A stretch of 64,000 nucleotides of DNA from an uncultured virus (IMG/VR IMGVR_UViG_3300014208_000040). Its lineage: Duplodnaviria; Heunggongvirae; Uroviricota; Caudoviricetes. This document shows, in pieces, positions 3,591 to 58,519 of this stretch. The position numbers were made by a program, and so were the translations under genes. The notes under the pieces were generated by a model. That model worked only from the letters and a program-made list of their open reading frames with translations. It made no database searches and was not told the DNA's origin. The stretch is from IMG/VR virus record IMGVR_UViG_3300014208_000040. One strand, given 5' to 3'. The first letter of the stretch is position 1; every line of letters starts with the position of its first letter.

Positions 3591-4424
3591 TCACTCATAC
3601 TTTGGAATCATTGTTATTAACTTCTCTTTATCTTCGGTGAACTTCCATGCTGGTTTGGAAACCCAACGGGTTCTTATTGCTGGGTTGCTATTAGATGTTC
3701 CATAAAATTCAAAATCATTCATTTCTGAAATTGGTGCCTGATATTGTTCTTTAACAATTATGCGACCATTCTTTTTTGCTTGGTCATATTCTGACCAATT
3801 GACATTATGTTTTTGAAACATCATTTCTTGCATTTCAAACGTTGATTTATTTTGAAGTTCCTTGTGAGAGAATAACGATTGAGCCACCATAGACACACTG
3901 TTACGAGCCGCATCTTGTCCACGCCAAATGAAGTAATTCATCACTTCGGTATGGTCGGGAATGGTGAATACACGAGCGTCAAAGTATGCCAGAGGTATGG
4001 ATAATACATCACTACCCCACAAATGAGTGCGACCTTCCACATCCCTATGTTCCTCTGAAAATCTATACAAACGACTCTTATTAAATTCCGCTGTAATGAT
4101 TGAGGATGCTACAGACACCATTTTCTGAATGTTCCCATCGAACCACGCATCGGTGTTGGGTGTAGCGAAATCCGTCAATAACAATGAGATTTCATCGGAT
4201 TGAGTGTAAGCGAATTGAACACCTTGAATGTGAGGCAACATCGCAATGATAGCCGCATCCATATCTTTAATCAATCCATCATCAAATGGTTTTTGTAATC
4301 TACGAGTGTAGGTATGAAAACTTTTTCCGTCTAAGCGAATTATAGTGTACGTTCGTCTAGGAATGAAGTATCTTGTTCTATCTTCATACTGATTTTTAAT
4401 CCGTTCTCCAAGATCATCTTTCAT
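3591..4424 (-). CDS. thg1: tRNA(His) guanylyltransferase Thg1-like protein
   Basis: IIRLDGKSFH, YTQSDEISL, FDARVF, YFIWR...RNS. Confidence 0.93.
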   Translation of the reverse strand: MKDDLGERIKNQYEDRTRYFIPRRTYTIIRLDGKSFHTYTRRLQKPFDDGLIKDMDAAIIAMLPHIQGVQFAYTQSDEISLLLTDFATPNTDAWFDGNIQKMVSVASSIITAEFNKSRLYRFSEEHRDVEGRTHLWGSDVLSIPLAYFDARVFTIPDHTEVMNYFIWRGQDAARNSVSMVAQSLFSHKELQNKSTFEMQEMMFQKHNVNWSEYDQAKKNGRIIVKEQYQAPISEMNDFEFYGTSNSNPAIRTRWVSKPAWKFTEDKEKLITMIPKYE

Positions 4425-12195: not shown

Positions 12196-12861
12196 ATGAA
12201 TATCATAGTTGAAATTCGAGCAGCCGAAGGCGGAAACGACGCAAAGTCCCTCGTCATCGAGCAATCTAAAATTTATTCAAAGGTCTGTTCCAAAAACGGG
12301 CTGTGAATGAATGTTTTGGATTGTTGCTCAGGTTTCACACTTCTAAAGATTTCTGGCAACAATCCCCTTTTAATTTTCAATAATGAGGCTGGCGGACACC
12401 GGTGGCAGAGAACACCCCCGAACGAACGAAACGGCCGAGTTCATACTAGCACCATCACGGTTTCTGTTTTTGTAGAACCAAAGCCGATGGAATTCATTCT
12501 TTCCGAAAAAGATTTAGAAATAAAGACTTGTCGTGGGGCGGGTAATGGTGGTCAAAATAGAAATAAATTGGAAACTACTGTTATTGTAACCCATATACCT
12601 ACAAAGACTACTGTAAGATGTGAAAGCGAACGGTCACAATATCAAAATCGTCAGATTGCTATTGATTTGTTGAGAACTAAATTGTATAACAATCAGAATT
12701 ATAAAATGATGAATGATATTAACGGAGTGAGAAAACAACAAATTGGTAGTGGTATGAGAGGGGATAAACGGAGAACAATAGCATGTCAAAGAAATTCCGT
12801 GGTTGACCACATTACTAATAAGAAATGGACTCTTGACCAATACTATTCTGGCAAATGGTAA
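12196..12861 (+). CDS. Class I peptide chain release factor homolog lacking domain 1, with an in-frame UGA at 12304-12306
   Basis: MNIIVEIRAAEGGNDAK (PCRF start) from ATG 12196 is in frame with the 12307 ORF (EAGGHRWQRTPPNERNGRVHTS, GAGNGGQNRNK, ERSQYQN, RGDKRRT). Confidence 0.85.
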
Positions 12862-19053: not shown

Positions 19054-19467
19054 ATGAATATAGAAGATACAACGAAGAAGTACAAGAGTGATGGGACTAT
19101 AGTGTATTCGTGTCAATACCATGTCATCTTCACGCCCAAGTATCGTAGGAAAGTTTTGACTAATGGTGTTGACTCTCGTTTGAAGGAACTTGTAAAAGAG
19201 AAACAAGAAGAATACAAATACAATATCCTTGAAATGGAAGTGATGCCCGACCATGTTCACCTACTCATTGACTCCAACCCAAAGGTAGGCATCTTCACTC
19301 AAATTAACAAAATCAAAGGCTACACCAGTCGGACACTCAGACAGGAGTTCCCTTGGTTGAGAAGTCGTTTGCCTTGTCTTTGGACTCGTTCAAAATTCAT
19401 CTCCACATGTGGAGCCGTATCGCTGGAAGTTGTAAAGAAATACATTCAAGACCAAAAACATGTCTAA
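19054..19467 (+). CDS. tnpA: Y1 HUH transposase
   Basis: YHVIFTPKYRR, MPDHVHLL (HUH), LWTRS, KKYIQDQ catalytic Tyr. Confidence 0.95.
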   Translation: MNIEDTTKKYKSDGTIVYSCQYHVIFTPKYRRKVLTNGVDSRLKELVKEKQEEYKYNILEMEVMPDHVHLLIDSNPKVGIFTQINKIKGYTSRTLRQEFPWLRSRLPCLWTRSKFISTCGAVSLEVVKKYIQDQKHV

Positions 19468-20485
19468 GTTGACCTACAAAGTAAAACATGGTGTTGACCT
19501 TTCTGTTGAGTTAAAGAAAGCCAAAGACATTGCTTTGTTCGCAATTAAGAGACGGAAACTTTCTTCCAAGGATGTAAAGCAATTCGGCTTGAAATCAATG
19601 TTGGCTAATCAGGTTCTTAGGAAGTATGCCCGTAATTGGAAATGTAAACAAATACGAAGAGTCAAATTGACTGTTCCAAACCAAGGAATAACTTTCAAAA
19701 ACAATTCCGTTTGGGTGCCTTCGCTGAAACTCACACTTCCTTTTGACAAGACCGTTGAGAAAATCAATCAAATAGAGTTGGATGACACCTATGCCTACAT
19801 TTGTTGTTCAATCAAAGACGAACCACAATACAAAGAGTGTAACTACATTGGAATTGACCTAAATGCTACGGGTCACATTGCCGTTGCTTCCATTGACAAT
19901 AAGATATTGAAAATGGGAAAAGAAGCACCACACATCCGTAGAGTGTATCAATCCATTCGTAAACAAGCACAAAAGAAGGGTGCCTACAAATTTGTCAAGA
20001 AACTCAAGAACCGAGAAAGCAGAAAGGTAAAAGAAATCAATCACAGAATTAGTCGTAAGATTGTGGATATTGCCAAACAAAAGAATTATGCTATCAAGAT
20101 GGAAAAACTTGAAGGCATTAGAAAGAAGAGACAAGGAAAGAAAGTAAACGGAATCAAATCCAATTGGTCGTTCTATCAACTCCAGCAGTTTGTAGAATAC
20201 AAGGCCAAGTTGCTTGGTGTGCCGGTGTTCTATATTGCTCCCGCCTATACATCTCAAAAATGTAGCCGGTGTGGACTAATAGGAGATAGACAAAAGAAGG
20301 TGTTCAAATGTAAATGTGGACACAATGACCACGCAGACGCAAACGCAGCATTCAATATAGGTAAGTCGTCTATAATGCGTGGAAATTTCAACCAAGAAAG
20401 AGATTGGTTGAAGAGCACCACTGATAGTGCTCAAGCGGAAATGACAACGAATGTTGTGTCAACCGCAGAACCCATTGCCCTTTAG
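19460..20485 (+). CDS. tnpB: RNA-guided RuvC nuclease TnpB
   Basis: IGIDLN, MEKL, YTSQKCSRCG...FKCKCG, HADANAAFNI; D-E-D triad intact. Confidence 0.93.
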   Translation: MSKLTYKVKHGVDLSVELKKAKDIALFAIKRRKLSSKDVKQFGLKSMLANQVLRKYARNWKCKQIRRVKLTVPNQGITFKNNSVWVPSLKLTLPFDKTVEKINQIELDDTYAYICCSIKDEPQYKECNYIGIDLNATGHIAVASIDNKILKMGKEAPHIRRVYQSIRKQAQKKGAYKFVKKLKNRESRKVKEINHRISRKIVDIAKQKNYAIKMEKLEGIRKKRQGKKVNGIKSNWSFYQLQQFVEYKAKLLGVPVFYIAPAYTSQKCSRCGLIGDRQKKVFKCKCGHNDHADANAAFNIGKSSIMRGNFNQERDWLKSTTDSAQAEMTTNVVSTAEPIAL

Positions 20486-21507: not shown

Positions 21508-22455
21508 ATGAAAGATATAAAATCTGTTGATTCCGTTGGTGTTATTGTTGGAAGATGGCAAGTTCCTGACCTCCACGATGCCCACAAAGAACTGATTCAA
21601 GAAGTTCTTAACAAACACCCAAGAGTTATTGTTTTTGTTGGTCTTGCTCCCGACTCGTGTAAGTGTACCCACAACAACCCCTTGGATTTCGCCGCTCGCA
21701 AGGCCATGATTGAAGAAGCGTTCCCGCGTGTTGAAGTCCTCTACATCAAAGATATTGGTAACAATGAATTGTGGAGTAAAGAACTTGATCGCCAAATTTC
21801 CCGTAACGTCCTCAATGAGAAAAAAGATAACATTGTTCTCTATGGCGGGCGTGATAGTTTCATTTTCCACTACAAGGGAATTCATCCTACCCAAGAATTG
21901 GTGCCTGGCCGTTTCATTTCCGGTAAGGAAATTCGTAAGAATGTCGGCGTAACAACCAAGCGGACAAAAGAATTTAGGGAGGGCGTCATTTGGGCGGTAG
22001 AAAATCGGTGGCCTTCGGTTCTTCCAACAGTTGATATCGCTCCAATTGATACGGAGAAGGACCGAGTGTTACTGTGTCGGAAACCAAATCAAACGAAGTT
22101 CCGTTTCGTGGGTGGTTTTGCTAGTCCTGACTCTGATAATTTTGAAGTGGATGCCGCTCGTGAATTATTGGAAGAAACCCATTTGGTAGGTGCCAATTTC
22201 CGTTACCTTTGTAGCGCTCGCATTGACGACTGGCGTTTCCGAAACGAACGTGACAAAATTAAAACTACTTTCTTCATCTGTGAATACATGGGCGGAGTCC
22301 CGCAAGCCGATGACGATATTGCAGAAGTCAAGTGGTTTGACTTGGAGACTTTGACAGAAAACGATTTGGTGGAAGAACATAAAGTATTGTTTCTTACACT
22401 AAAAGAGAAGGTGATAGACCCGCTAGGTAAAGCTACCGCTGGTGTATGTGCCTGA
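21508..22455 (+). CDS. Bifunctional NMN/NaMN adenylyltransferase - Nudix hydrolase (NadM-Nudix)
   Basis: VGRWQVPDLHDAH (HxxH), NPLDF..R, SGKEIR, Nudix box GGF...AARELLEET. Confidence 0.9.
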   Translation: MKDIKSVDSVGVIVGRWQVPDLHDAHKELIQEVLNKHPRVIVFVGLAPDSCKCTHNNPLDFAARKAMIEEAFPRVEVLYIKDIGNNELWSKELDRQISRNVLNEKKDNIVLYGGRDSFIFHYKGIHPTQELVPGRFISGKEIRKNVGVTTKRTKEFREGVIWAVENRWPSVLPTVDIAPIDTEKDRVLLCRKPNQTKFRFVGGFASPDSDNFEVDAARELLEETHLVGANFRYLCSARIDDWRFRNERDKIKTTFFICEYMGGVPQADDDIAEVKWFDLETLTENDLVEEHKVLFLTLKEKVIDPLGKATAGVCA

Positions 22456-30165: not shown

Positions 30166-30526
30166 CTTTTTATATCACTGTGATATATTGATGACATGAA
30201 AGATGAACCAAACTTATGTTTTGATAGTCAATGGTGATTGTAGTTGACTTTCTATATTTCATGTGATACCATACCTTCATGAAACTAAAAAAGGTTATCA
30301 GACTCAAGAAAATCGACCTATCCAAAATGGGTCAACAAGGTGGAAACAAGGAAGATTGTGACCATAAGGATATTTCTGTTGAGAAGACCTACATGGTTCA
30401 GTATGAAGATGAAACTCTTGTGGGAAATTTTGAACGTGAGTGGTATGGTTGGAATTTCAGCTGGTTCAATATGACGTATTGTTATCTTAAACTTGATTGT
30501 TTGGATGAAGTGTGGGAGGTATTACC

Positions 30527-31690
30527 ATGAAAGTTAAAGACCCAATTATTACGAGTTTATTGGATAATGATCTGTACACGATAACGGTTGGTCAGGTCGC
30601 ATTTCAGAAATTTCCCGATGCGACGGTGGAGTATTCTTTCATAAATCGTAACAACACCAAATTTACAGAACATTTTTTGGCGGAGTTGAAACATCAATTC
30701 AGTTTGATGAAACAATTGAAATTGACTTCCTATGAATTGGTGTGGTTGAAATCCCTTGATTATTTCACCGATGATTATTTAGCTTGGTTAAACAAATACC
30801 AATTTAACCCAAACGAACTCATCATTAAACTTGTTGATGGAGTTTTAACTATTACAGTCAAAGGCAGTTGGATGCGAACTATTATGTGGGAAGTTCCAAT
30901 CCTCGCCCTCGTTTCCGAATTGTATTTCAAATTGGAAAGTAAACAAAAGATGGATGGGTGGATTGACCGAATTGCTCGCAAAGCTCAAAATTTAAGTTCA
31001 AACGGTTGTCTGTGGATTGACTTCGGTACACGACGCCGGTTTGATTTTGAAGTTCAACAAGAAGTGGTTCGTTCGATGAAATCTTACACAGGATTTCTCG
31101 GAACAAGTAATATGATGTTGGCTCAACAATATGAAATTCAACCTGTCGGAACTATGTCTCATCAAGGTCCAATGGCAATGATGGCGAAGTATGGTGTAAA
31201 AAACGCAAACAAACAATGGATGTCACATTGGATAGAGTGTTACAAGGATAAACTCTTGACCTATTTGCCGGATACTTTTACAACCGGAGTTTTCCTAAGA
31301 GATTTTGACAAAGAATCTGCTAAGGTTTGGAATTTACGTCAAGACAGTGGCGTTCCGTCGGAATGGATGGATACAGTTTTGGCCCATTATGAAAAATTGG
31401 GTGTTTCAACAAAGAATAAGAAGACATTTGTGTTTTCTGATGGGTTAACCGATGAAACTTACAAGAATCTTTCGTTGAAATATAGGAAGTATGCCACCAT
31501 AGTAGGGGGGATTGGTACTTCCATATCTAATGATTGTGGACACACCCCACTTAACATTGTAGTGAAATTGACCCGGGCCAACTTCGGTCAGGGTTGGGTA
31601 GATGTTGTGAAGCTATCTGATAGTAAAGGTAAATACACCGGAAATCCGGAAGCCGTTAAATTGGTCAAACTCGAATTGGGAATTATATGA
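30527..31690 (+). CDS. pncB: Nicotinate phosphoribosyltransferase
   Basis: SLLDNDLY, DFGTRRR, GTSN, GTMSH, LPDTF, RQDSG, VFSDGL, GIGT, NIVVK, VKLSD..GK. Confidence 0.93.
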   Translation: MKVKDPIITSLLDNDLYTITVGQVAFQKFPDATVEYSFINRNNTKFTEHFLAELKHQFSLMKQLKLTSYELVWLKSLDYFTDDYLAWLNKYQFNPNELIIKLVDGVLTITVKGSWMRTIMWEVPILALVSELYFKLESKQKMDGWIDRIARKAQNLSSNGCLWIDFGTRRRFDFEVQQEVVRSMKSYTGFLGTSNMMLAQQYEIQPVGTMSHQGPMAMMAKYGVKNANKQWMSHWIECYKDKLLTYLPDTFTTGVFLRDFDKESAKVWNLRQDSGVPSEWMDTVLAHYEKLGVSTKNKKTFVFSDGLTDETYKNLSLKYRKYATIVGGIGTSISNDCGHTPLNIVVKLTRANFGQGWVDVVKLSDSKGKYTGNPEAVKLVKLELGII

Positions 31691-33853: not shown

Positions 33854-34339
33854 ATGAAAACAATTGATTGTAACCTTCTCGACGTTCAAGCCGATATCAT
33901 CGGCCATTGCTGCAATTGCCAAAACACAATGGGCAGTGGTGTGGCTGCCGCCATCCGTCAAGAGTATCCCGAAGCCTACGATGTGGATTGTAAGACGGTC
34001 AAGGCTGACAAAGCCAAGTTGGGTACCGTAAGTCTGGCCGTCGTGATTGACCCAACTCTTCACAAGAATCAAACCATCAAAGCTGTTGTCAATCTTTATG
34101 GTCAATACTCCTACGGTGGAGAAAGGCCCATGAGTTACGAAGCGATTTACACCGCCTTGGTGGCCTTCAAAGAGAAGTTGAAGCCCGCTGTCAAGACTGT
34201 GGCTTTTCCGTATAAAATGGGGGCAGATAGGGCAGGTGGTTCGTGGCCTATTATTGAAAAAATGATAGAAATAGTGTTTGAAAATAGTGGTGTTGATGTA
34301 ATTATTTGTAAGTTCGACCCAAATAAATCCCCTGTTTGA
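33854..34339 (+). CDS. Macrodomain protein (ADP-ribose binding/hydrolase)
   Basis: HCCNCQNTMGSGVAAAI, NLYGQ, FPYKMGADRAGGSW. Confidence 0.88.
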   Translation: MKTIDCNLLDVQADIIGHCCNCQNTMGSGVAAAIRQEYPEAYDVDCKTVKADKAKLGTVSLAVVIDPTLHKNQTIKAVVNLYGQYSYGGERPMSYEAIYTALVAFKEKLKPAVKTVAFPYKMGADRAGGSWPIIEKMIEIVFENSGVDVIICKFDPNKSPV

Positions 34340-35811: not shown

Positions 35812-37083
35812 ATGGCAACACTGATTAAAGAAGTCCGTCTGATTAAGGTTGAACAGACAGATGAAACGAATTCGTATAAATACTGGAATGGGCAACTGTT
35901 TGACGACGGCAACGTTCATGCGGAATGGGGCCGCGTTGGTTGTGCTAATCCAGCAAGCGGTGATTGGTCAGGTGGTGAAACATATCTTGATAAGAAGAAA
36001 CGTGAAAAGGAGAAAAAAGGATATGTAGAACAAAAAACCGTTGGCGTGGCTAATACTGGTAGCATGTCGTCAGTCAAAGTTGATTCTAACCTCCGTGAAA
36101 TCGCCAAGAAAGAACTTCTCAAGGATGCTTCCAACACTGTGTTGGCGGGTTTGGTTGACCGCCTTGTTAAGTCAAACATTCACAAAATCACCGCAACTAC
36201 CAACATTACTTTCAACAATACCACAGGTTTATTTCAAACTCCGTTAGGGATTGTAACTCCATCGGGAATTAGTGAGGCTCGTGACATTCTTGCTCAAATT
36301 CATCCGTTGGTCAAGGCGTCTCGGTTCACCCCTACGTTGAACGATTACGTCAACAAATACGTGCTCATCGTTCCTCAAAACTTGGGCATGAAACGTTTTA
36401 ACGCTGAGACGGTGTTTCCCGATGAAACTGCGGTTCAGAAACAGTCCGACATTCTCGACAGTTTAGAGGCATCCTATCAGGCCATGACAACTTCGACGCC
36501 CAAAGAGGTTGGAACACCTACCGAATCTGGAGTGTTCAAAGTTGACCTTGATACTTTTAATGACTCCAAAGAAACAGATAGAATCACTCGTTGGTTTAAT
36601 TCTAGTAATCATTCCACCCACGGATATAGAAATGTTAAAATTCGAAATTTCTTCAAAGTAAAAATTCATGATAATTGGAATAATTTCAATGAAAAATTGG
36701 GAAATGTAAAAGAAATCTGGCACGGTTCGGGGGAGGGAAATCTTCTCAGTATTTTGAAAGTCGGATTAAAATCCGCTCCTCCATCCACGGTTCACATTAC
36801 CGGAAAAATGTTTGGTGCTGGTCATTATGGCGCTCTCGATAGTTCCAAGTCAATGCAGTACACATTTGGACGATTTGGTGGTAACAGTGGAGATACGGGC
36901 TGGTTAATAGTCGCGGATTTTGCTTTGGGGAATACTTACTACATTAAAAGTTACGGAGGAAATAAACCGTCTGGATACGATTCAATTTGGGCAAAGAAAG
37001 AACACACCGGCCTCCGATTTGATGAATTGATTGTTCCCAAGGACAACCAAGTTAGAATTAAATATCTTCTTGAAGTTAAGTGA
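35812..37083 (+). CDS. WGR-domain PARP-like ADP-ribosyltransferase
   Basis: EWGRVG WGR domain; WHGS, GKMFGAGHYGA..SKS..Y, FDELIV (H-Y-E triad). Confidence 0.88.
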   Translation: MATLIKEVRLIKVEQTDETNSYKYWNGQLFDDGNVHAEWGRVGCANPASGDWSGGETYLDKKKREKEKKGYVEQKTVGVANTGSMSSVKVDSNLREIAKKELLKDASNTVLAGLVDRLVKSNIHKITATTNITFNNTTGLFQTPLGIVTPSGISEARDILAQIHPLVKASRFTPTLNDYVNKYVLIVPQNLGMKRFNAETVFPDETAVQKQSDILDSLEASYQAMTTSTPKEVGTPTESGVFKVDLDTFNDSKETDRITRWFNSSNHSTHGYRNVKIRNFFKVKIHDNWNNFNEKLGNVKEIWHGSGEGNLLSILKVGLKSAPPSTVHITGKMFGAGHYGALDSSKSMQYTFGRFGGNSGDTGWLIVADFALGNTYYIKSYGGNKPSGYDSIWAKKEHTGLRFDELIVPKDNQVRIKYLLEVK

Positions 37084-51419: not shown

Positions 51420-51719
51420 ATGAAAACAAGACAAGGATTCGTTTCCAATAGTAGTAGTTCAAGTTTCTGTATCATGGGTGTAGTCATTGATAATGACACC
51501 TACGACAAAATTGATAACACTCCGAAAACAAAAACGGCTCTCAAAACTCAGTATGGTATTGACTCATTCTATGAACAATACTTGGCCGGATTTCCAGTTT
51601 CGGATATGAAAGATGACGAAACTCTGGCTCAGTTCAAGGCCCGTTGTCAGGCTGAACTCGCCTTGTTTGGTGTCACCGATAAAGTAGAATGGTGTTTGGA
51701 TGGTGGAAGGGATTCGTAA
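51420..51719 (+). CDS. SNSSS-leader protein 1
   Basis: Starts MKTRQGFVSNSSSSSFCI (true ATG 51420). Confidence 0.85.
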   Translation: MKTRQGFVSNSSSSSFCIMGVVIDNDTYDKIDNTPKTKTALKTQYGIDSFYEQYLAGFPVSDMKDDETLAQFKARCQAELALFGVTDKVEWCLDGGRDS

Positions 51720-51722
51720 CCG

Positions 51723-52226
51723 ATGAAAACACGACAAGGATTTGTAAGCAATTCAAGCAGTTCGTCTTTTATCGTAAGACGACAGGGTTTGAGGGATGAC
51801 ATTATTCAAACCACAACCATACAAGACTTGGCCTTGAAAGAATTCGGTTTCCGAAAAACGACGGCTCATAATCCACACCAACTTCCTCCGTTCCACGATA
51901 AGGAAGAATGGAAGACGGAACGAAAACTCTTACGTCTTAAGGTCTATAAAAAAGGATTCAATTTTGGCTATGAAGTAATATGTAATCAAAATGTAGTCAT
52001 TACATTTCTCGTGGAGAATCGTATCTCGTTTGTGGCAGCTTGTCATTATGGTCATGAATCTGTTCTGTATGATGGTAAAACTGACACAATGCACGTTGGG
52101 GTCAATTACGGTAGTATCATGGAAACTTACGGCGTTCCAGACGTGTTTAATGATATTTATCTTGACAAACGGCGGCCCGTTGTTAAAATGACTGGTAAAG
52201 AATGGTTGAAAACCAACCGATATTGA
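51723..52226 (+). CDS. SNSSS-leader protein 2
   Basis: MKTRQGFVSNSSSSSFIV. Confidence 0.85.
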   Translation: MKTRQGFVSNSSSSSFIVRRQGLRDDIIQTTTIQDLALKEFGFRKTTAHNPHQLPPFHDKEEWKTERKLLRLKVYKKGFNFGYEVICNQNVVITFLVENRISFVAACHYGHESVLYDGKTDTMHVGVNYGSIMETYGVPDVFNDIYLDKRRPVVKMTGKEWLKTNRY

Positions 52227-52408
52227 TTTATGAGTTTTGATGTGTGGATTAAAACTATGCCCAAATGCGATATACGACAATATGCGACTGCTCGTGTTGC
52301 TTGGAATGCTTGTAAAGAAGAAGCTAGTAAAATCATTAAAAACCAATTGATTTTTGGAATGAATCATACAACGGAACACAAAGAAATGTTAGATAAAATA
52401 GAAGACCT

Positions 52409-53008
52409 ATGAAAACACGACAAGGCTTTGTAAGTAACAGTTCCAGCAGTTCGTTTATTGTTGGATTCAAGAAAGTTCCCAAGACGGATTGGGAACTCCG
52501 CGACCTTTTGTATCCCGCTGACAAGGATGGGAAACGAAAGAACGTAACGACCGACTATAGCGATGACGGTGGGTTGGATACCACGACTGCCGCAACCATT
52601 GTGTTCAAGGATTTACAGGATCAAAAACCGTTGACACAAAAACAAATTGGGGAAGAAATCAATTCTGGTTACTTTGAGGGGTATCCCGAAATCAATTACA
52701 GCAGCGACCGTGAGGCCGACCAAATTCGTCGTGATTACGAAAAGGCATCGGGCAAGGATGTTTACGACAAGGATGCCGACCCAGCCGTATTCAAGAAATA
52801 TAACGAAGCGACCAAACAACATTGGGCTACCGAACGGGCCAAGGTTGACGCGGCGGCCAAGGAATACTGGAAGAGAGTCAAGGCACAGTTCAAAGGGTTG
52901 AAGTGTTACCGTTTCTCGTATTCAGACAACGATGGAACGGTGTTTGCTACGTTGGAGCACGGAAATACTTTCGATTCACTTCCACATATAAAAATATCCC
53001 ATCATTGA
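52409..53008 (+). CDS. SNSSS-leader protein 3
   Basis: MKTRQGFVSNSSSSSFIV; ends LEHG..F..LPHIKISHH. Confidence 0.85.
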   Translation: MKTRQGFVSNSSSSSFIVGFKKVPKTDWELRDLLYPADKDGKRKNVTTDYSDDGGLDTTTAATIVFKDLQDQKPLTQKQIGEEINSGYFEGYPEINYSSDREADQIRRDYEKASGKDVYDKDADPAVFKKYNEATKQHWATERAKVDAAAKEYWKRVKAQFKGLKCYRFSYSDNDGTVFATLEHGNTFDSLPHIKISHH

Positions 53009-53320
53009 TAACATGGATTTTAAGTTAGAATCTCAAATTATTGGCGTCCCTGACAAGTTGCCAACCGAACCGAAACCAGAATTCAAGTATCTGGAAGTTG
53101 AGGTAACGAGAATCGAAGGAACGACGTTGTATTTGAAAGTTCCTTACAACTTTAACCGAAAAAATTTGTCGATTAAATTGTTAGTCAACGCCTGTAAAGA
53201 AACTTGTGAGGAATACGATTGGGATAATTCTGGTTGGGAACACGACGTAGAATTGCAATCAGTCAAAGAAGTTACTGAAAAAGATGCTACCGCATACAAC
53301 GTTTATGAGGTAAAAACAAC

Positions 53321-53587
53321 ATGAAGATTCGCCACGGGTTTGTCAGTAATAGTAGCAGTGCTAGTTTCACTGTGAATGTGGATAAGTTATACGCTCGTGA
53401 CGCCATTGTGCTCATGGATTACCCACACGTTGCGGCTCAAGAGGGTTCTCAGTGGACTGACTATTGGGATATCAACATATACACTCGTGGTCTAATCATC
53501 GGCACAACCAACATGGATAACTGTGATTTGTCTGATTATCTGAAAGCTAACAACGTGGATACCTCGGCTTTTTACTTTGGAGATTAA
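53321..53587 (+). CDS. SNSSS-leader protein 4
   Basis: MKIRHGFVSNSSSASFTV. Confidence 0.85.
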   Translation: MKIRHGFVSNSSSASFTVNVDKLYARDAIVLMDYPHVAAQEGSQWTDYWDINIYTRGLIIGTTNMDNCDLSDYLKANNVDTSAFYFGD

Positions 53588-53590
53588 CAC

Positions 53591-53977
53591 ATGAAAACAC
53601 GACAGGGATTCGTTTCCAATTCAAGTTCAAGCTCATTTATCGTGGGCCTCAAGGTTGACTCGACGGAGTGTCCGCACTGTCATCGTAAGGATGCCAATTT
53701 CTTTGACCGTCTTGAAGCTTTGGGCGACCGCACTTGGGATGAATCTCGGTTGCGGTATCGTGGATTACCAAAAGTCGTGGAACAATTACAGGAATATTAC
53801 AGTCATCCTGACGATAAGGAAACGTATGACCGTTTGTTAGCCGAAGCACTCTCCTTGAGCCACGCCGGTTATGAACTCGGTTCGGTGGAAATTTCCTATC
53901 ACGATGAAGCGTTGAACGACGAGTTTCGTGCCCTCCGAGAAACGGGCAAGCTGGTCGTCATTTTGGATAACAACTAA
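53591..53977 (+). CDS. SNSSS-leader protein 5
   Basis: MKTRQGFVSNSSSSSFIV; CPHC. Confidence 0.85.
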   Translation: MKTRQGFVSNSSSSSFIVGLKVDSTECPHCHRKDANFFDRLEALGDRTWDESRLRYRGLPKVVEQLQEYYSHPDDKETYDRLLAEALSLSHAGYELGSVEISYHDEALNDEFRALRETGKLVVILDNN

Positions 53978-53985
53978 TAACATCT

Positions 53986-54360
53986 ATGAAAACAAGACAA
54001 GGTTTTGTATCCAACAGTAGCAGCAGTTCCTTTGTGATTCTCGTGGAAGAGTCCACGCACGAAAAGGTTATGGAAAAACTCACGGAATACCAACGAGCAT
54101 GTATGGAAAAACTCGCGGGTAAACCCCAAAACATTTTCGGTCGCAATGTAATTGTGATTGGAGAAGCGACGGACATGGGCGGCAATTCAAGTTTGATTGA
54201 AGAAGGATGGCAGCCAGAGGGTTGGGAAGAGAAGATTGAAAAATTGGCGGCGACAGGTGAGGATGAAGATTACTATCCATCCGAAGCCCTTTACGCCTAT
54301 ACTAACGCCGTGGAAAAACAACCGAAGTCGGCGTGGTTCAAGTGGGATGCTGACATGTGA
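53986..54360 (+). CDS. SNSSS-leader protein 6
   Basis: MKTRQGFVSNSSSSSFVI. Confidence 0.85.
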   Translation: MKTRQGFVSNSSSSSFVILVEESTHEKVMEKLTEYQRACMEKLAGKPQNIFGRNVIVIGEATDMGGNSSLIEEGWQPEGWEEKIEKLAATGEDEDYYPSEALYAYTNAVEKQPKSAWFKWDADM

Positions 54361-54424
54361 ACGTGGTGTTTCAATGTTCCGGAGAAACGTGGTGTTTCAA
54401 TGTTCCGGAGAAACGTGGTGTTTC
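54360..54424 (+). repeat. 26-bp tandem repeat, 2.5 copies
   Basis: AACGTGGTGTTTCAATGTTCCGGAGA twice plus AACGTGGTGTTTC. Confidence 0.9.
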
Positions 54425-54544
54425 GGAATTCCGAGGGAACACACGTTTGAAGGACTTGATGCCCTTCCATATCTTGACTTGAAATACGGTGAAAAATGAC
54501 ACGATTTACTATGTCATTGAATTTTTGAAAGAAGTCAAAAAACT

Positions 54545-54877
54545 ATGAAAACAAGAAACGGATTCGTATCTAACAGCAGCAGTTCATCGTTTGTCGTTGT
54601 CATTCCGACTGACATCGCTGAAACGGTTCTTCAAACACTCACGCCTTATGAACAGGCCGTCGCTAAACACGTTCGGCTTAGTGACAAGAAGTTCATGGGC
54701 GGCAAGGTTGCCATCTTCCAAGGGTCAACCGGAAACAATGATGTTTGGGAATATGGATTTGACTTTGAGGGTGACAAGTCTGACGAAGACAACACCTATG
54801 ACGCATGGCAAACCTTCTTAACCAAGGTCAAAGAAACCGGCGAAGACCATTTTCTAATCAGTGAAACCGACAGTTAA
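54545..54877 (+). CDS. SNSSS-leader protein 7
   Basis: MKTRNGFVSNSSSSSFVV; body resembles protein 6. Confidence 0.85.
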   Translation: MKTRNGFVSNSSSSSFVVVIPTDIAETVLQTLTPYEQAVAKHVRLSDKKFMGGKVAIFQGSTGNNDVWEYGFDFEGDKSDEDNTYDAWQTFLTKVKETGEDHFLISETDS

Positions 54878-54886
54878 ACAAAACCT

Positions 54887-55213
54887 ATGAAAATCAGAAG
54901 TGGATTCGTCTCAAACAGTTCCAGTAGTTCTTTCGTTATTCTTGGAACACGAATGAAACGAGAAGTTCTAAAGAAAAAGGGTTGGTTTCGGGATACCGAC
55001 GGAAATTCGGGAAAAAACAAACCCAAAGATATTCAGGTCTATTATGGTTCAACTGATGCTGGATACATTGTGGGGATTCCGCTCTGTGACAGTAAAGAGT
55101 GGGGATTGAACAACTCCGAAGTTACCTTTGAAAAACTTGAACAAATTCGTCAAGATTTACTCACTTTGGGATTGCCAAACGTCAGACTTTTAATGGGAAC
55201 TAGGTCAACGTAA
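54887..55213 (+). CDS. SNSSS-leader protein 8
   Basis: MKIRSGFVSNSSSSSFVI. Confidence 0.85.
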   Translation: MKIRSGFVSNSSSSSFVILGTRMKREVLKKKGWFRDTDGNSGKNKPKDIQVYYGSTDAGYIVGIPLCDSKEWGLNNSEVTFEKLEQIRQDLLTLGLPNVRLLMGTRST

Positions 55214-55256
55214 AAAAGGTCTTGACTTTTTATATCGTTATGGTAAGATGTTTGGC

Positions 55257-55670
55257 ATGAAGATTAAATTGTGTCCAAAATGTGGTTCTTCCAATCTTGG
55301 TGAAAGGTGGTCCAACGGACGCAAACTTGTCCAATACTGCCACAGTGATGAGGATTGTTATTGGGTTGGTGAACCATACACTCCCTCGAAACGTCGCATC
55401 ACCAACACCACTGACTTGAGGATTGACAACTTCTCGGGCTGGCACTACATCGTTTATGATCGTTTTGGACATATCCAAACGGATTCTGCTACCTATCACA
55501 CCAAGGCAGAAGCAGTGAAAGAGATGGAAGAGGACTTGACGCCAAGGGCAGGTTACAACGACCCCGCCGCTCCTTACACTGCGGTCTTGTTCAACGTCCC
55601 CTCTCGTGTCACCATCAAGGGTAAGATGTTCAAGTTCAAGGATGGTGAGGTAGTTGTAAAAAGGGCTTGA
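55257..55670 (+). CDS. Zn-ribbon hypothetical protein
   Basis: CPKCGS...YC...CYW; own promoter. Confidence 0.6.
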   Translation: MKIKLCPKCGSSNLGERWSNGRKLVQYCHSDEDCYWVGEPYTPSKRRITNTTDLRIDNFSGWHYIVYDRFGHIQTDSATYHTKAEAVKEMEEDLTPRAGYNDPAAPYTAVLFNVPSRVTIKGKMFKFKDGEVVVKRA

Positions 55671-55692
55671 CTTTTTATAGTGACGTGATAAG

Positions 55693-56199
55693 ATGTCTAA
55701 CATAATGAATAAAGGTATTGTATCTGAATCCAAGGATGGCCGCTTCAAAATTTTTAGGAGCAAGTCATATAACTATAACTTTGACAAACATTCAGGAGAA
55801 TTTGCCCGTTGGGGAGAAACTACTGACGAAGACCCGTTATTCAGTCCATTCGGCCCCGAAATCATGGATATTGAGATTTCCGAGGGTGAATCCTGCCCGA
55901 TGACGTGTGCGTTTTGTTCACCAAAAGGAACATTGATAAACACACCTAATGGGAAAGTGGAAATTGAGAATTTGGCTGCCAAAAATTTGGTAATTGGATT
56001 CGATACCCAAAACAACACTCCCAAAATTCAAGAAATTGAAGAAATCTATTTCAAACAATATATCGGAGAATTGATTTGTATTGAACTTGATAACGGACGA
56101 ATTCTTAAACTTACTCCTGAACACGAAATTTTCACAAGAAACCGTGGCTGGATTATGTCTAAAGAATTGTTGGAAACTGATGAAATTGTTGAATTTTGA
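55693..56199 (+). CDS. Radical SAM enzyme N-extein plus split intein N-half
   Basis: PEIMDIEIS..CPMTCAF, then intein from Cys at 55915 (CSPKGTLINT) with block B LKLTPEHEIFT; start may be ATG 55705. Confidence 0.88.
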   Translation: MSNIMNKGIVSESKDGRFKIFRSKSYNYNFDKHSGEFARWGETTDEDPLFSPFGPEIMDIEISEGESCPMTCAFCSPKGTLINTPNGKVEIENLAAKNLVIGFDTQNNTPKIQEIEEIYFKQYIGELICIELDNGRILKLTPEHEIFTRNRGWIMSKELLETDEIVEF

Positions 56200-56247
56200 A
56201 TTTTCTAAAACCTAAATATACAGGTGATTGGACAACTATCACCTTAT

Positions 56248-57033
56248 ATGAAAATTGTAAAAACATTATGTCGTAGATGCGGTAATCAAACAGGAACTCT
56301 TGAAAAAGAAAATTCAAAAAAAGATTCAATAATAGATAAAAATCGGTATTGTAACGATTGTGTTGAAAAATATAGGCAACACCGAGACGACAGAATGAAA
56401 AATCATAATCCTGTTAAACAACAATCCACTAGAGATAAAATATCCAACACACTAAAACGAAAATATAAAACCGGAGAAATATCTTCTCCTTTTTTAGACG
56501 CAATCAAACTTAAAGAAATACATTCAAAAAGAAAAGGATTATCCAACGAAGGGTCTGCTATTATAAGCAGACGAATGAAAACAAAAAATCCAATGTTTGA
56601 TGCGAAGATTCGTAAACGTGTTTCCGTCACAATTAACGAACGTATTAAAAGTGGGAAATTAGTTTACAAAAAAGGACATTTCCACCATCTTTACAAAGGA
56701 ACACGAACATTTTCCAACGATTGCCGTAAGTGGTTAAAAGTATGGATAAAGTCTATACTGAAAAGAGATAAATTTTCTTGTACGGTTTGTGGTAGAATCG
56801 GAGGATATTTACACACCCATCATATCAGACCACTGAGAGATATTATAAAAACTGTGTTGACAATTGAAGGTGTTGTTGATATAGTAAGTGTCAAGTTGAA
56901 CGATATAAGTAGATACGAACAACTCATTCAAAAAATAGTAGATGCTCATAAAATGGAAGATGGAATTACGGTTTGTAAACAGTGTCACGCAAATATAGAC
57001 GATAGATACCGAAGAATTAAAAAGACAACATGA
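56248..57033 (+). CDS. Free-standing HNH homing endonuclease between the intein halves
   Basis: ILKRDKFSCTVCG...LHTHHIRP...GITVCKQCH; NPM/NPV repeats. Confidence 0.85.
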   Translation: MKIVKTLCRRCGNQTGTLEKENSKKDSIIDKNRYCNDCVEKYRQHRDDRMKNHNPVKQQSTRDKISNTLKRKYKTGEISSPFLDAIKLKEIHSKRKGLSNEGSAIISRRMKTKNPMFDAKIRKRVSVTINERIKSGKLVYKKGHFHHLYKGTRTFSNDCRKWLKVWIKSILKRDKFSCTVCGRIGGYLHTHHIRPLRDIIKTVLTIEGVVDIVSVKLNDISRYEQLIQKIVDAHKMEDGITVCKQCHANIDDRYRRIKKTT

Positions 57034-58079
57034 AAAAAATCAAAAAAATCAGTAGAGAACAGTTTAACGGAAACGTTTACAATTTTCATTGTTTGCCTAG
57101 TGAAAATTATTTTTCGGAAAACGTTTTGGTTCATAATTGTTACAAGGGCAACCGTAAAGGTGACGCTACCAAATCTCTCCACATGTCACTTGATACGTTC
57201 AGGGGATTGTTTGCCAAATTTCCAAAAACCGTTACCCAAATTGCTTTCGGTATTACATCCATTGGTGCTCACCCTGAATTGTTTGGTATTTTCCAACACT
57301 GCCGGGATAACGGCGTCATTCCAAACGTCACCATTAATGGGGCAGACAACTTGACGGATGAACAGATTCAGAAGTTGATTACTGTCTGTGGGGCCATGGC
57401 CATTTCCATCAACAAACAAAATTTCGAGTCGGGCTTGAATCTGATTAACAAGTTGACAAGCCGTGGTGGTCAACAAATCAACATTCATTACGTCATCAGT
57501 AAACAGAGCATCACGTTCGCCTATACATTGGCCGAAGCCATCAAGAACGACTCTCGGTTAACTAAAATGAATGCCATTGTGTTCCTCGGCCTCAAACCCA
57601 AGGAACGTGGTCAAGTGTTTGATGTGTTGGAAATTGACGAATACATCAAATTGGTGAACTATTGTCTTGAAAACAACATTCGTTTCGGATTTGATTCGTG
57701 TTCTGCTCCTCGTTTTGATAAGGCAGTATCACTAACAAACATCGAAGAAGCCAAGAAACGTCTTCTCCTTCAATGTTCGGAACGTTGTGAGTCGGGATTG
57801 TTCTCCGCGTATCTTGATTGTTCTGGCAAATACTGGCATTGTTCTTTCGGTGAGAATCTTGAAGTTGCTTATGGCATTGACGTTACCAAAGTGGAAAACT
57901 TCGCCCGCGACGTGTGGTGTAGTGAACCGATGAACAAATGGCGTAAAACTTTGTTGGGCCTCAATCGTGAATGTCCATTGTATTCTAAAATTCATGTAGA
58001 ACCGCGTGAACCATTTGCTCATGAAGTCGAAAAGGAACAACGTGAATTGGCGGCTGCTAAGGAAAAACTGACCACATGA
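57030..58079 (+). CDS. Split intein C-half plus radical SAM C-extein (SPASM/twitch-like tail)
   Basis: 36-aa IntC (VYNF...NYFSENVLVHN), then CYK at 57138; QIAFG, PNVTING, GFDSC, CESGLFSAY..SGKYWHCSF, ECPLY. Confidence 0.9.
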   Translation: MKKIKKISREQFNGNVYNFHCLPSENYFSENVLVHNCYKGNRKGDATKSLHMSLDTFRGLFAKFPKTVTQIAFGITSIGAHPELFGIFQHCRDNGVIPNVTINGADNLTDEQIQKLITVCGAMAISINKQNFESGLNLINKLTSRGGQQINIHYVISKQSITFAYTLAEAIKNDSRLTKMNAIVFLGLKPKERGQVFDVLEIDEYIKLVNYCLENNIRFGFDSCSAPRFDKAVSLTNIEEAKKRLLLQCSERCESGLFSAYLDCSGKYWHCSFGENLEVAYGIDVTKVENFARDVWCSEPMNKWRKTLLGLNRECPLYSKIHVEPREPFAHEVEKEQRELAAAKEKLTT

Positions 58080-58519
58080 AAATACATATTATGTCTGACT
58101 CAGCTTATCCTGTTTATGGATTTTGGGAAGCGACCGAACATGACAGACATTCAGTAGAATTGACCGATGAAGACGTGATATGGTGTAAACGTGTCGAATC
58201 GGAATACAACAAAATGCAAGAATTTCTGGGGAAGAAACACGACGAACAATGGAGAAATTCAAGATGAATAAATCATTTATAAAAGTCCATATTGTTAAAG
58301 GCGAATCCTATCCAACTTATGGGGTTTCACAAGATTGTGAACATGAAAAATGGATGGTTGAATTGACCGATCAGGAAATTTCTTGGTGTCGGTATATTGA
58401 AAACGAATATCATCAACTTCAAGATTTTCTTTCAAGAAAATACGACGAACAATGGATATCCACAAATGAAAACGAACAACGTGAATTGGCGGCTGCCAAG
58501 GAGAAATTGATCGCATGAA
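58035..58519 (+). repeat. About 46-bp imperfect direct repeat (58035-58080 and 58474-58519) bracketing two paralogous small ORFs
   Basis: GAACAACGTGAATTGGCGGCTGC.AAGGA.AAA.TGA.C.CATGAA; ORFs 58076-58267 and 58264-58518 share YPxYG..VELTD..I.WC..E.EY..Q.FL. Confidence 0.8.

Follow-up and report, generated by a model that had tools for sequence, protein, structure and literature searches.

How can a phage make use of an iron-sulfur enzyme whose gene is broken precisely where the cluster should be bound? The question is raised by a 64,000-nt stretch of DNA from an uncultured virus of the Caudoviricetes (IMG/VR record IMGVR_UViG_3300014208_000040; "the window" below means this whole stretch), in which a radical S-adenosylmethionine (SAM) enzyme is encoded in two pieces, on either side of an endonuclease gene. 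The three genes lie on the same strand in one locus: gene 1, ending with the N-terminal half of an intein (IntN), a free-standing HNH gene, and gene 3, starting with the C-terminal half (IntC). An earlier note, made from the letters of this DNA, had read the locus as a natural split intein, placed inside the CxxxCxxC motif of the enzyme, and this has held: at the level of sequence, the locus is confirmed as a natural class 1 split intein, with splicing predicted. Taken as a whole, we consider it quite probable that the locus is a mobile selfish cassette, capable of trans-splicing and homing, in which the intein is a passenger and the spliced enzyme acts on a tag shared by the products of a nearby gene array. 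In what follows, L-labels denote related loci and P-labels related proteins.

The fractured gene and its intein

Gene 1 (55693-56199, + strand, 168 aa) encodes 74 residues of the enzyme, ending in CPMTCAF, and then a 94-aa IntN, the junction reading ESCPMTCAF/CSPKG, with Cys-7 at 55894, Cys-3 at 55906 and Cys1 at 55915. The N-extein (55693-55914, +) thus carries the first two cluster cysteines, preceded by a four-strand N-terminal sheet that includes a predicted tag-docking strand. The IntN (55915-56199, +; net charge -6) has TPEH in block B, at positions 67-70, and ends at a TGA (56197-56199) backed by a second in-frame stop, TAA, at 56206-56208. The ATG at 55705, giving 164 aa, appears a likelier start than 55693, because a promoter-like site ends at 55694. 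Gene 3 (57030-58079, +), in another frame, opens with a 36-aa IntC (57030-57137, +; block F YNFHC, block G VHN, net charge +2), followed at 57138 by CYK, the start of a 313-aa C-extein (57138-58079, +) that comprises Cys+1, a partial TIM barrel and Twitch/SPASM-like cysteines. The exteins match a single phage family in common, phrog_7293, by profile comparison.

The IntN scores 34.6 bits against TIGR01445 (intein_Nterm), above the cut-off of 24.5, and its best PDB match is NrdJ-1 (8ubs, E 8e-7). The IntC on its own matches PF14890 weakly (E 0.057) and has no PDB match; it is alignable over its whole length with contiguous mini-inteins from its own intein family. Between them the halves, carried on separate genes, possess Cys1, the block B TxxH, block F, the penultimate His, the terminal Asn and Cys+1 of a class 1 split intein, and their removal restores a conserved host protein. 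The three nearest enzymes (P0001-P0003, 86-90% identical) are intein-free and read CPMTCAFCYKGN across the junction, from which alignment Cys+1 is the third [4Fe-4S] ligand, as had been claimed. Intein-free homologues, another of the checks proposed, are plentiful: C-extein homologues number 1185 at E up to 0.001, and among the 120 matches listed 100 are intein-free at the junction, 9 start with a 35-residue IntC, 1 contains a contiguous mini-intein and 10 have no readable junction.

As to the host, the intact homologue P0001 has a confidently predicted fold (predicted local distance difference test, pLDDT, 95.6), with SuiB, SkfB, CteB and anSME as the best fold matches (template-modelling score about 0.5-0.6). 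Among 94 intact homologues PF04055 is found in 81 and PF13186 in 22 (E up to 0.01), and the homologue alignment conserves C258, C287, C305 and C349, C-terminal auxiliary-cluster cysteines. Together with the CxxxCxxC motif and the partial TIM barrel, these features are those of the SPASM/Twitch subgroup of radical SAM enzymes. In the family model libraries the enzyme reaches no curated family's cut-off, and PADLOC returns nothing beyond a weak viperin match over the cysteine triad. Relatives of up to about 35% identity are present in 172 GenBank phage records, mostly KP15-like, the cultured phages carrying the intact form, and the enzyme family has 18 loci in GTDB, several of them probably phage contigs.

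One detail of the junction tempers the earlier view that the enzyme cannot work unspliced. The N-precursor itself reads CxxxCxxC, the intein Cys1 supplying a third cysteine after Cys-7 and Cys-3, and in one relative (L126, 7950-9738; L143 is apparently the same contig) the enzyme gene is split at a different site by a GIY-YIG gene, without an intein, with ATGA overlaps on both sides and no Rfam intron at the locus. Inactivity before splicing is therefore likely, not assured. Since the precursor contains a triad of Cys-7, Cys-3 and Cys1, splicing in vitro may plausibly be sensitive to oxidants or metals. The same third-cysteine site has also been taken, in P0294 of this enzyme family, by an unrelated contiguous LAGLIDADG intein.

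Signals that could control expression are found around the intervening gene. The HNH gene (56248-57033, +; alternative GTG at 56224) encodes 261 aa, with a C-terminal CxxC..HH..CxxCH domain whose motif, with zinc-binding CxxC pairs, is matched by pattern in 20/22 family members, and its product matches the HNH family phrog_8446 (E 1.9e-11). An RNA hairpin (56216-56249, +; z -3.2 over 71 nt) covers a Shine-Dalgarno (SD)-like AGGTGAT and reaches two bases into the start codon of the HNH gene; its stem is also found in L035 (z -5.1) and, with base changes and weaker, in L006 (z -1.0). At the other end, the HNH stop and the gene 3 start overlap by 4 nt, as ATGA, so that both marks of a fractured gene, the hairpin before the nuclease start and the overlap of nuclease end with IntC start, are present. 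Directly 5' of gene 1 lies the promoter-like site (TTGACT, 16 nt, TGnTAAGAT; 55667-55694, +), of which the window has 2 copies versus 0 expected, its core motif having 17 matches at up to one mismatch versus 3.6 expected; this position suggests that the fractured gene may have its own transcript. The promoter-like motif CTTGACTTTTT recurs within 16074-62961 of the window in 9 exact copies, all on the + strand, and two copies examined sit few bases 5' of start codons, suggesting leaders that would be short or absent.

Contigs of two groundwater runs, from two studies, aligned to the locus at about 150-fold contig depth, contain no alternative letters or indels over it and no joint bypassing the cassette; this DNA may itself derive from either run. 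In run X2 the contigs break near 56363-56388 and 56972-56995, around the HNH gene, with differing mean depths, and these breaks and the depth step may represent a strain variant.

Recurrence, forms and movement of the cassette

A search with the gene 1 protein returned 24 matches: the protein itself, 19 N-halves ending after 94-97 IntN residues, and 4 fragments from genes that are intact. The IntC was also sought by a DNA pattern, of which the His-Asn was a part; this matched 4 times in viral records, 43 times in metagenomes and 0 times in GTDB, with CYK or CYQ following in 47/47. Along with the window, these 47 matches reduce to 37 distinct elements, 34 split and 3 contiguous. All 34 split elements have a stop just 5' of the IntC and a start codon 32-44 codons before its end, 25 have an SD-like site before the IntC, all three frame offsets are represented, and the gaps between the halves range from 21 to about 1590 nt. 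Since 34/37 distinct elements of the intein family are split at this site, the split is, on these DNA records, no artefact.

The intervening content varies. Both halves are in view in 29 of the split elements. A free gene of the window's HNH family is present in 22 of these, and the other 7 are made up of 1 with a free HNH gene of a second family, 2 with the second nuclease fused to the IntN, 2 with nuclease remnants and 2 with short spacers only; L012, with a further nuclease remnant, is excluded from this count, its IntN being cut. We take the second HNH family to be of the HNH-AP2 type, from its motif, with no confirmation from the libraries. In L005, L012, L030, L037 and L039 the element is still split although the nuclease has been lost. 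When 50%-representatives were searched for relatives of a contiguous member, 5 more contiguous alleles and several IntN-nuclease fusions came to light, and one element (L036) retains a Met exactly where the split IntCs start. A fully fused IntN-HNH-IntC form was not found among 2247 candidate proteins of 612-2000 aa, which, with 2 matches in this set, is weak evidence. Other radical SAM families, one with an RlmN-like motif, also have related inteins, in contiguous and N-half forms, ahead of their third cysteine (P0288, with a weak RlmN match, P0221, P0249, P0254, P0258, P0289, P0172, P0201, P0205 and P0265). In P0252, a radical SAM N-half, there are two inteins: one follows the first-cysteine region, and the other, which is split, precedes the third cysteine.

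The relationships among these alleles speak for mobility. A tree of 99 C-exteins, of which 35 are split, 4 contiguous and 60 empty (the last a sample of the 100 rows available), requires 12 changes in intein presence, at least 11 of these changes being forced by starred branches, and the window's nearest rows are empty alleles. Among 51 close exteins, a topology that unites the 8 alleles with an intein in one clade is rejected (approximately unbiased test, p-AU 6e-53). Between L006, which is split, and P0008, which is empty, the exteins show 95% and 98% identity. The N-halves with which the window's IntN shares 78-82% identity have exteins that match at 61-68%, and the window's exteins reach 85-90% identity with empty alleles. 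Compared with L035, the HNH gene product is 81% identical, with third-position differences at 43/206, and the C-extein 67%, with 75/158. The G+C content of the element is 27-33%, versus 42-43% for the exteins. Such patterns of identity, composition and branching are those that homing of the whole cassette gives, and the cassette thus appears to move as a unit, its spread being documented by the trees and the homing cut being putative.

As to the forms of the intein, a rooted tree of 47 rows rejects a single fracture with all contiguous forms outside (p-AU 7e-9), with contiguous P0151 nested in nuclease-fused forms (96/95) and contiguous P0166 in split forms (93/92), and with contiguous, split, nuclease-fused and nuclease-lost forms intermixed. 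The alignment behind this tree is short (126 columns, 18/44 forks open, bootstrap not settled) and does not fix the direction of change between contiguous and split; re-fusion, repeated fracture or recombination could each be the source of the mixture.

The tagged array and its link to the enzyme

Upstream of gene 1, eight genes on the + strand (51420-55213; starts at 51420, 51723, 52409, 53321, 53591, 53986, 54545 and 54887) encode proteins that begin with MKxRxGFVSNSSS[SA]SF, candidate substrates of the enzyme. The earlier note called this array adjacent, which is not quite so: a 140-aa gene (55248-55670) and the promoter-like site intervene. The link extends to other loci. A tagged gene is found within 8 kb at 58/79 viral loci of the enzyme family (not all independent) and in view at 6/18 GTDB-held loci, and 54/75 intact, intein-free viral alleles adjoin tagged genes. 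In the reverse direction, a scan for the tag gave at least 153 stretches, and the flanks of the first 80 loci resolved into 58 contigs, the enzyme family being in view on 36 of these and on 22/23 of those with four or more tagged genes. In a KP15-like phage (L165/L166 and L104, one 178,768-bp contig) the tagged genes lie about 20 kb from the enzyme gene, and so absence within 8 kb is not absence from the genome.

The 422 distinct tagged proteins are spread over many unrelated body families. In the model of the 53321 product residues 1-11 are disordered, though several are invariant; fold searches with the tagged protein gave only generic ferredoxin-like matches (best Z 6.7), and in the Atlas only unnamed matches, below 0.9. 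When P0001 is modelled with the 53321 product, the complex scores 0.76 (runs of 0.77, 0.76 and 0.49) versus 0.07 for the best control, the mark for such scores being reached by 116/157 solved complexes and 2/215 mismatched pairs, rates that hold only roughly with the alignments used here. The runs share at least 40% of contacts, with partner pLDDT of 41-66. In the modelled complex, residues 1-6 of the tag are paired with strand 30-37 of the enzyme, a part that gene 1 encodes, and the remainder of the tag, to residue 12, contacts barrel residues 104-285, encoded in gene 3; the docking strand holds invariant G31 and G37 and near-invariant R35, W36 and D43. The model supports binding of the tag by the enzyme, and the arrangement, an enzyme genetically linked to candidate substrates with a shared leader, is that of systems for peptides made by ribosomes and modified after translation (RiPPs). 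The counts over loci, the reverse scan and the complex model give the enzyme-array link more support than sequence alone could show. Chemistries to consider on the tag include an aromatic-x-Ser crosslink, serine oxidation, epimerization and backbone cleavage.

The surroundings fit a jumbo phage as the source, because the gene 1 product is recorded on a 351,839-bp contig and the window also encodes Thy1, several homing nucleases, a release-factor-like protein (12307-12861), a PARP catalytic domain (35812-37083) and a NAPRTase (30512-31690). The latter two belong to an NAD/ADP-ribose set completed by a NUDIX-cytidylyltransferase (21508-22455) and a macrodomain (33854-34339); other genes are Pth2-like (891-1346), Thg1 (3591-4424) and TnpB/Cas12f-like (19460-20485). 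The coding end of gene 3 (58030-58079; QRELAAAKEKL) is repeated at 58480-58518, at the end of an 89-aa open reading frame (58249-58518).

Explanations, precedents and meaning

The explanation we favor is that the end of gene 1 encoding IntN, the HNH gene and the start of gene 3 encoding IntC make up a selfish mobile cassette, inserted where the radical SAM gene of a jumbo phage is most conserved, immediately before the third cysteine of CxxxCxxC. A promoter before gene 1 would give one transcript, from which three proteins would be made. The motifs being intact and shared with homologues, IntN and IntC would associate and trans-splice by the class 1 route (Cys1, block B Thr/His, His-Asn, Cys+1), rebuilding CPMTCAFCYK and joining the N-terminal sheet to the barrel. 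By analogy with the fractured genes of Dassa et al. (2009), the hairpin would hold HNH translation low, and the ATGA overlap would couple translation of IntC to that of HNH. In mixed infections HNH would cut intein-free alleles, into which the cassette would be copied. The spliced enzyme would most likely bind the N-terminal tag of the array proteins and modify the FVSNS stretch, and the intein would be a passenger, not a needed regulator. A further reading, in which we place moderate confidence, would make the enzyme the maturase of an undescribed phage system of protein modification, with the MKxRxG leader docked on the gene 1 strand and radical chemistry on FVSNS in the gene 3 barrel, trans-splicing joining recognition to catalysis; it would, in addition, make fracture reversible at this site, with contiguous, split, nuclease-fused and nuclease-lost inteins interconverting repeatedly.

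A number of observations weigh against this explanation. The HNH product falls below the Pfam HNH cut-off and its gene has decayed in some relatives, and the hairpin is strong (z below -3) in just 6/21 loci folded. The trees cannot tell gain from loss, repeated loss via recombination with empty alleles explains part of the pattern, and base composition accounts in part for how little the A+T-rich element has diverged at third positions. No tagged gene is in view at 21/79 viral and 12/18 GTDB-held enzyme loci. One of the three complex runs reached just 0.49, the model employed P0001 (90% identical) and not the window's own enzyme, blind-picked neighboring genes passed the mark in 7/44 cases in the tool's own test, and the model may pass through likeness to solved complexes of radical SAM enzymes with peptides.

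The main competitor is the idea, also raised in the earlier note, that splicing is an evolved switch for the array: a disulfide between Cys-3 and Cys1, or an Fe-S or Zn site at Cys-7, Cys-3 and Cys1, would gate splicing, and hence tag modification, until conditions are reducing. Cys-3 is indeed present in 39/39 records with the N-junction in view, in the geometry reported in passages on the MoaA intein of Pyrococcus abyssi, and the element stays split in the five nuclease-lost loci. Yet Cys-3 is an automatic consequence of the insertion site, and the tagged system runs without the intein, as this is carried by just 3/79 viral loci (and by 10/110 readable top homologues) and most intact viral alleles stand beside tagged genes; moreover, the cassette comes and goes between near-identical alleles. 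Redox sensitivity in vitro thus appears likely, selection for it is not indicated, and we regard a domesticated switch as unlikely.

The remaining possibilities are far less probable. That an active enzyme forms from unligated halves, as in NrdA of phage Aeh1, with Cys1 or Cys+1 as the third ligand and splicing slow or dispensable, finds some encouragement in the intein-less L126 and in the CxxxCxxC of the N-precursor, but the split elements throughout retain Cys1, the block B His, the final His-Asn (for which the pattern itself selected) and Cys+1, and a folded intein would sit within the cluster-binding loop; we consider it very improbable. Still more improbable is removal of the HNH segment as an RNA intron, or its bypass by the ribosome, to yield one contiguous intein, an alternative the earlier note had itself entertained. 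Contiguous mini-inteins do occur at this site; however, Rfam gives no intron match in the window region (one unrelated match, E 0.66) or at 12 related loci (tRNAs only), just 48 bases are non-coding in the window's copy, and the gaps, of 21 to about 1590 nt and all frame offsets, each followed by an IntC start codon of its own in 34/34, do not agree with it. As for an assembly error or a dead pseudogene, a thought that the metagenomic origin invites, the two breaks have tidy signals with no variant letters at the depth given above, and recurrence of the same breaks in dozens of divergent phages refutes it, leaving it next to no probability.

The layout has clear precedents. Fractured genes have been described for gp41-1, gp41-8, NrdJ-1, NrdA-2, IMPDH-1, DnaE, ligase and terminase, with hairpins in 15/16 loci (Dassa et al., 2009; PMC2677866), and in the passages of that paper employed here the likeness noted earlier is borne out: three same-strand genes of phage origin, a short hairpin-bearing spacer before the nuclease (48 nt to its ATG here, 27-51 there), a nuclease stop overlapping the IntC gene (4 nt here, 6-69 there), an acidic IntN of 88-105 aa and a basic IntC of 33-54 aa, compared to 94 and 36 here. 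A nuclease-less variant exists in both sets, gp41-7 there and the nuclease-lost loci here. The differences, within the same passages, are in the hosts, which there are enzymes of DNA synthesis, repair and packaging (plus one unnamed protein of unknown function) and here a radical SAM enzyme, in the nucleases, GIY-YIG and Vsr-like there and HNH of two kinds here, and in the visibility here of a whole allelic series at one site. The present locus thus departs from the published profile of GIY-YIG or Vsr-like nuclease and DNA-metabolism host, which is no strict criterion. In Aeh1, in the same source, nrdA is fractured by the HNH gene mobE and the halves assemble without ligation; the breaking of a phage enzyme gene by an HNH gene, the hairpin control and the overlap are alike, but no intein is involved, and L126 is the closer analogue.

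The radical SAM host, which had been thought unusual, is so only in part. In review passages on the P. abyssi MoaA intein of Callahan et al. (2011), a natural Cys-3/Cys1 pair in a radical SAM host is proposed as a redox trap (PMC10663303, PMC3922620), and both the host type and the extein Cys at -3, here forced by the insertion site, are shared; that intein is contiguous, archaeal and chromosomal, with redox trapping tested, whereas the present one is split, of phage origin and known from sequence. Two curated NCBIfam families, NF045703 (Tes) and NF038136 (Rv2578c family), likewise have radical SAM hosts with inteins, but these are other enzyme families, not split, and the present enzyme is far below their cut-offs. 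The P. abyssi MoaA intein probably lies at the third cysteine of the triad as well. What stands is the split form: literature searched by title and abstract, its coverage lying outside InBase and most subscription journals, contains no split intein in a radical SAM enzyme, nor any mention of the MKxRxGFVSNSSSSSF tag, and the word radical does not occur in the passages of PMC4760082, PMC7090010 and PMC12707363 that were searched. As to the enzyme itself, it resembles SuiB, SkfB, CteB, anSME and BtrN in the fold, in the GxxxxC auxiliary-cluster motif and in the modelled docking of a leader strand with the core in the barrel, but identities are 10-17%, its N-terminal sheet is modelled without the helices of a RiPP recognition element, and its candidate substrates are folded proteins of many unrelated families and not short precursor peptides. 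Layout and radical SAM site have precedents; what is new, as far as the searched literature goes, is the complete allelic series together with the testable enzyme-tag link.

Overall, the locus extends fractured genes from enzymes of DNA metabolism to an iron-sulfur enzyme, and to HNH nucleases. One site supplies most stages of the gene-breaking model of 2009, making the order of events testable, and with over 30 IntN/IntC pairs, natural, divergent and with Cys+1 at the junction, the family offers candidates for tools. The linkage to the tag and the complex model point to a direct experiment with enzyme and substrate. As inteins persist at conserved sites of genes that matter, the presence of this one suggests that this so far unstudied phage enzyme matters.

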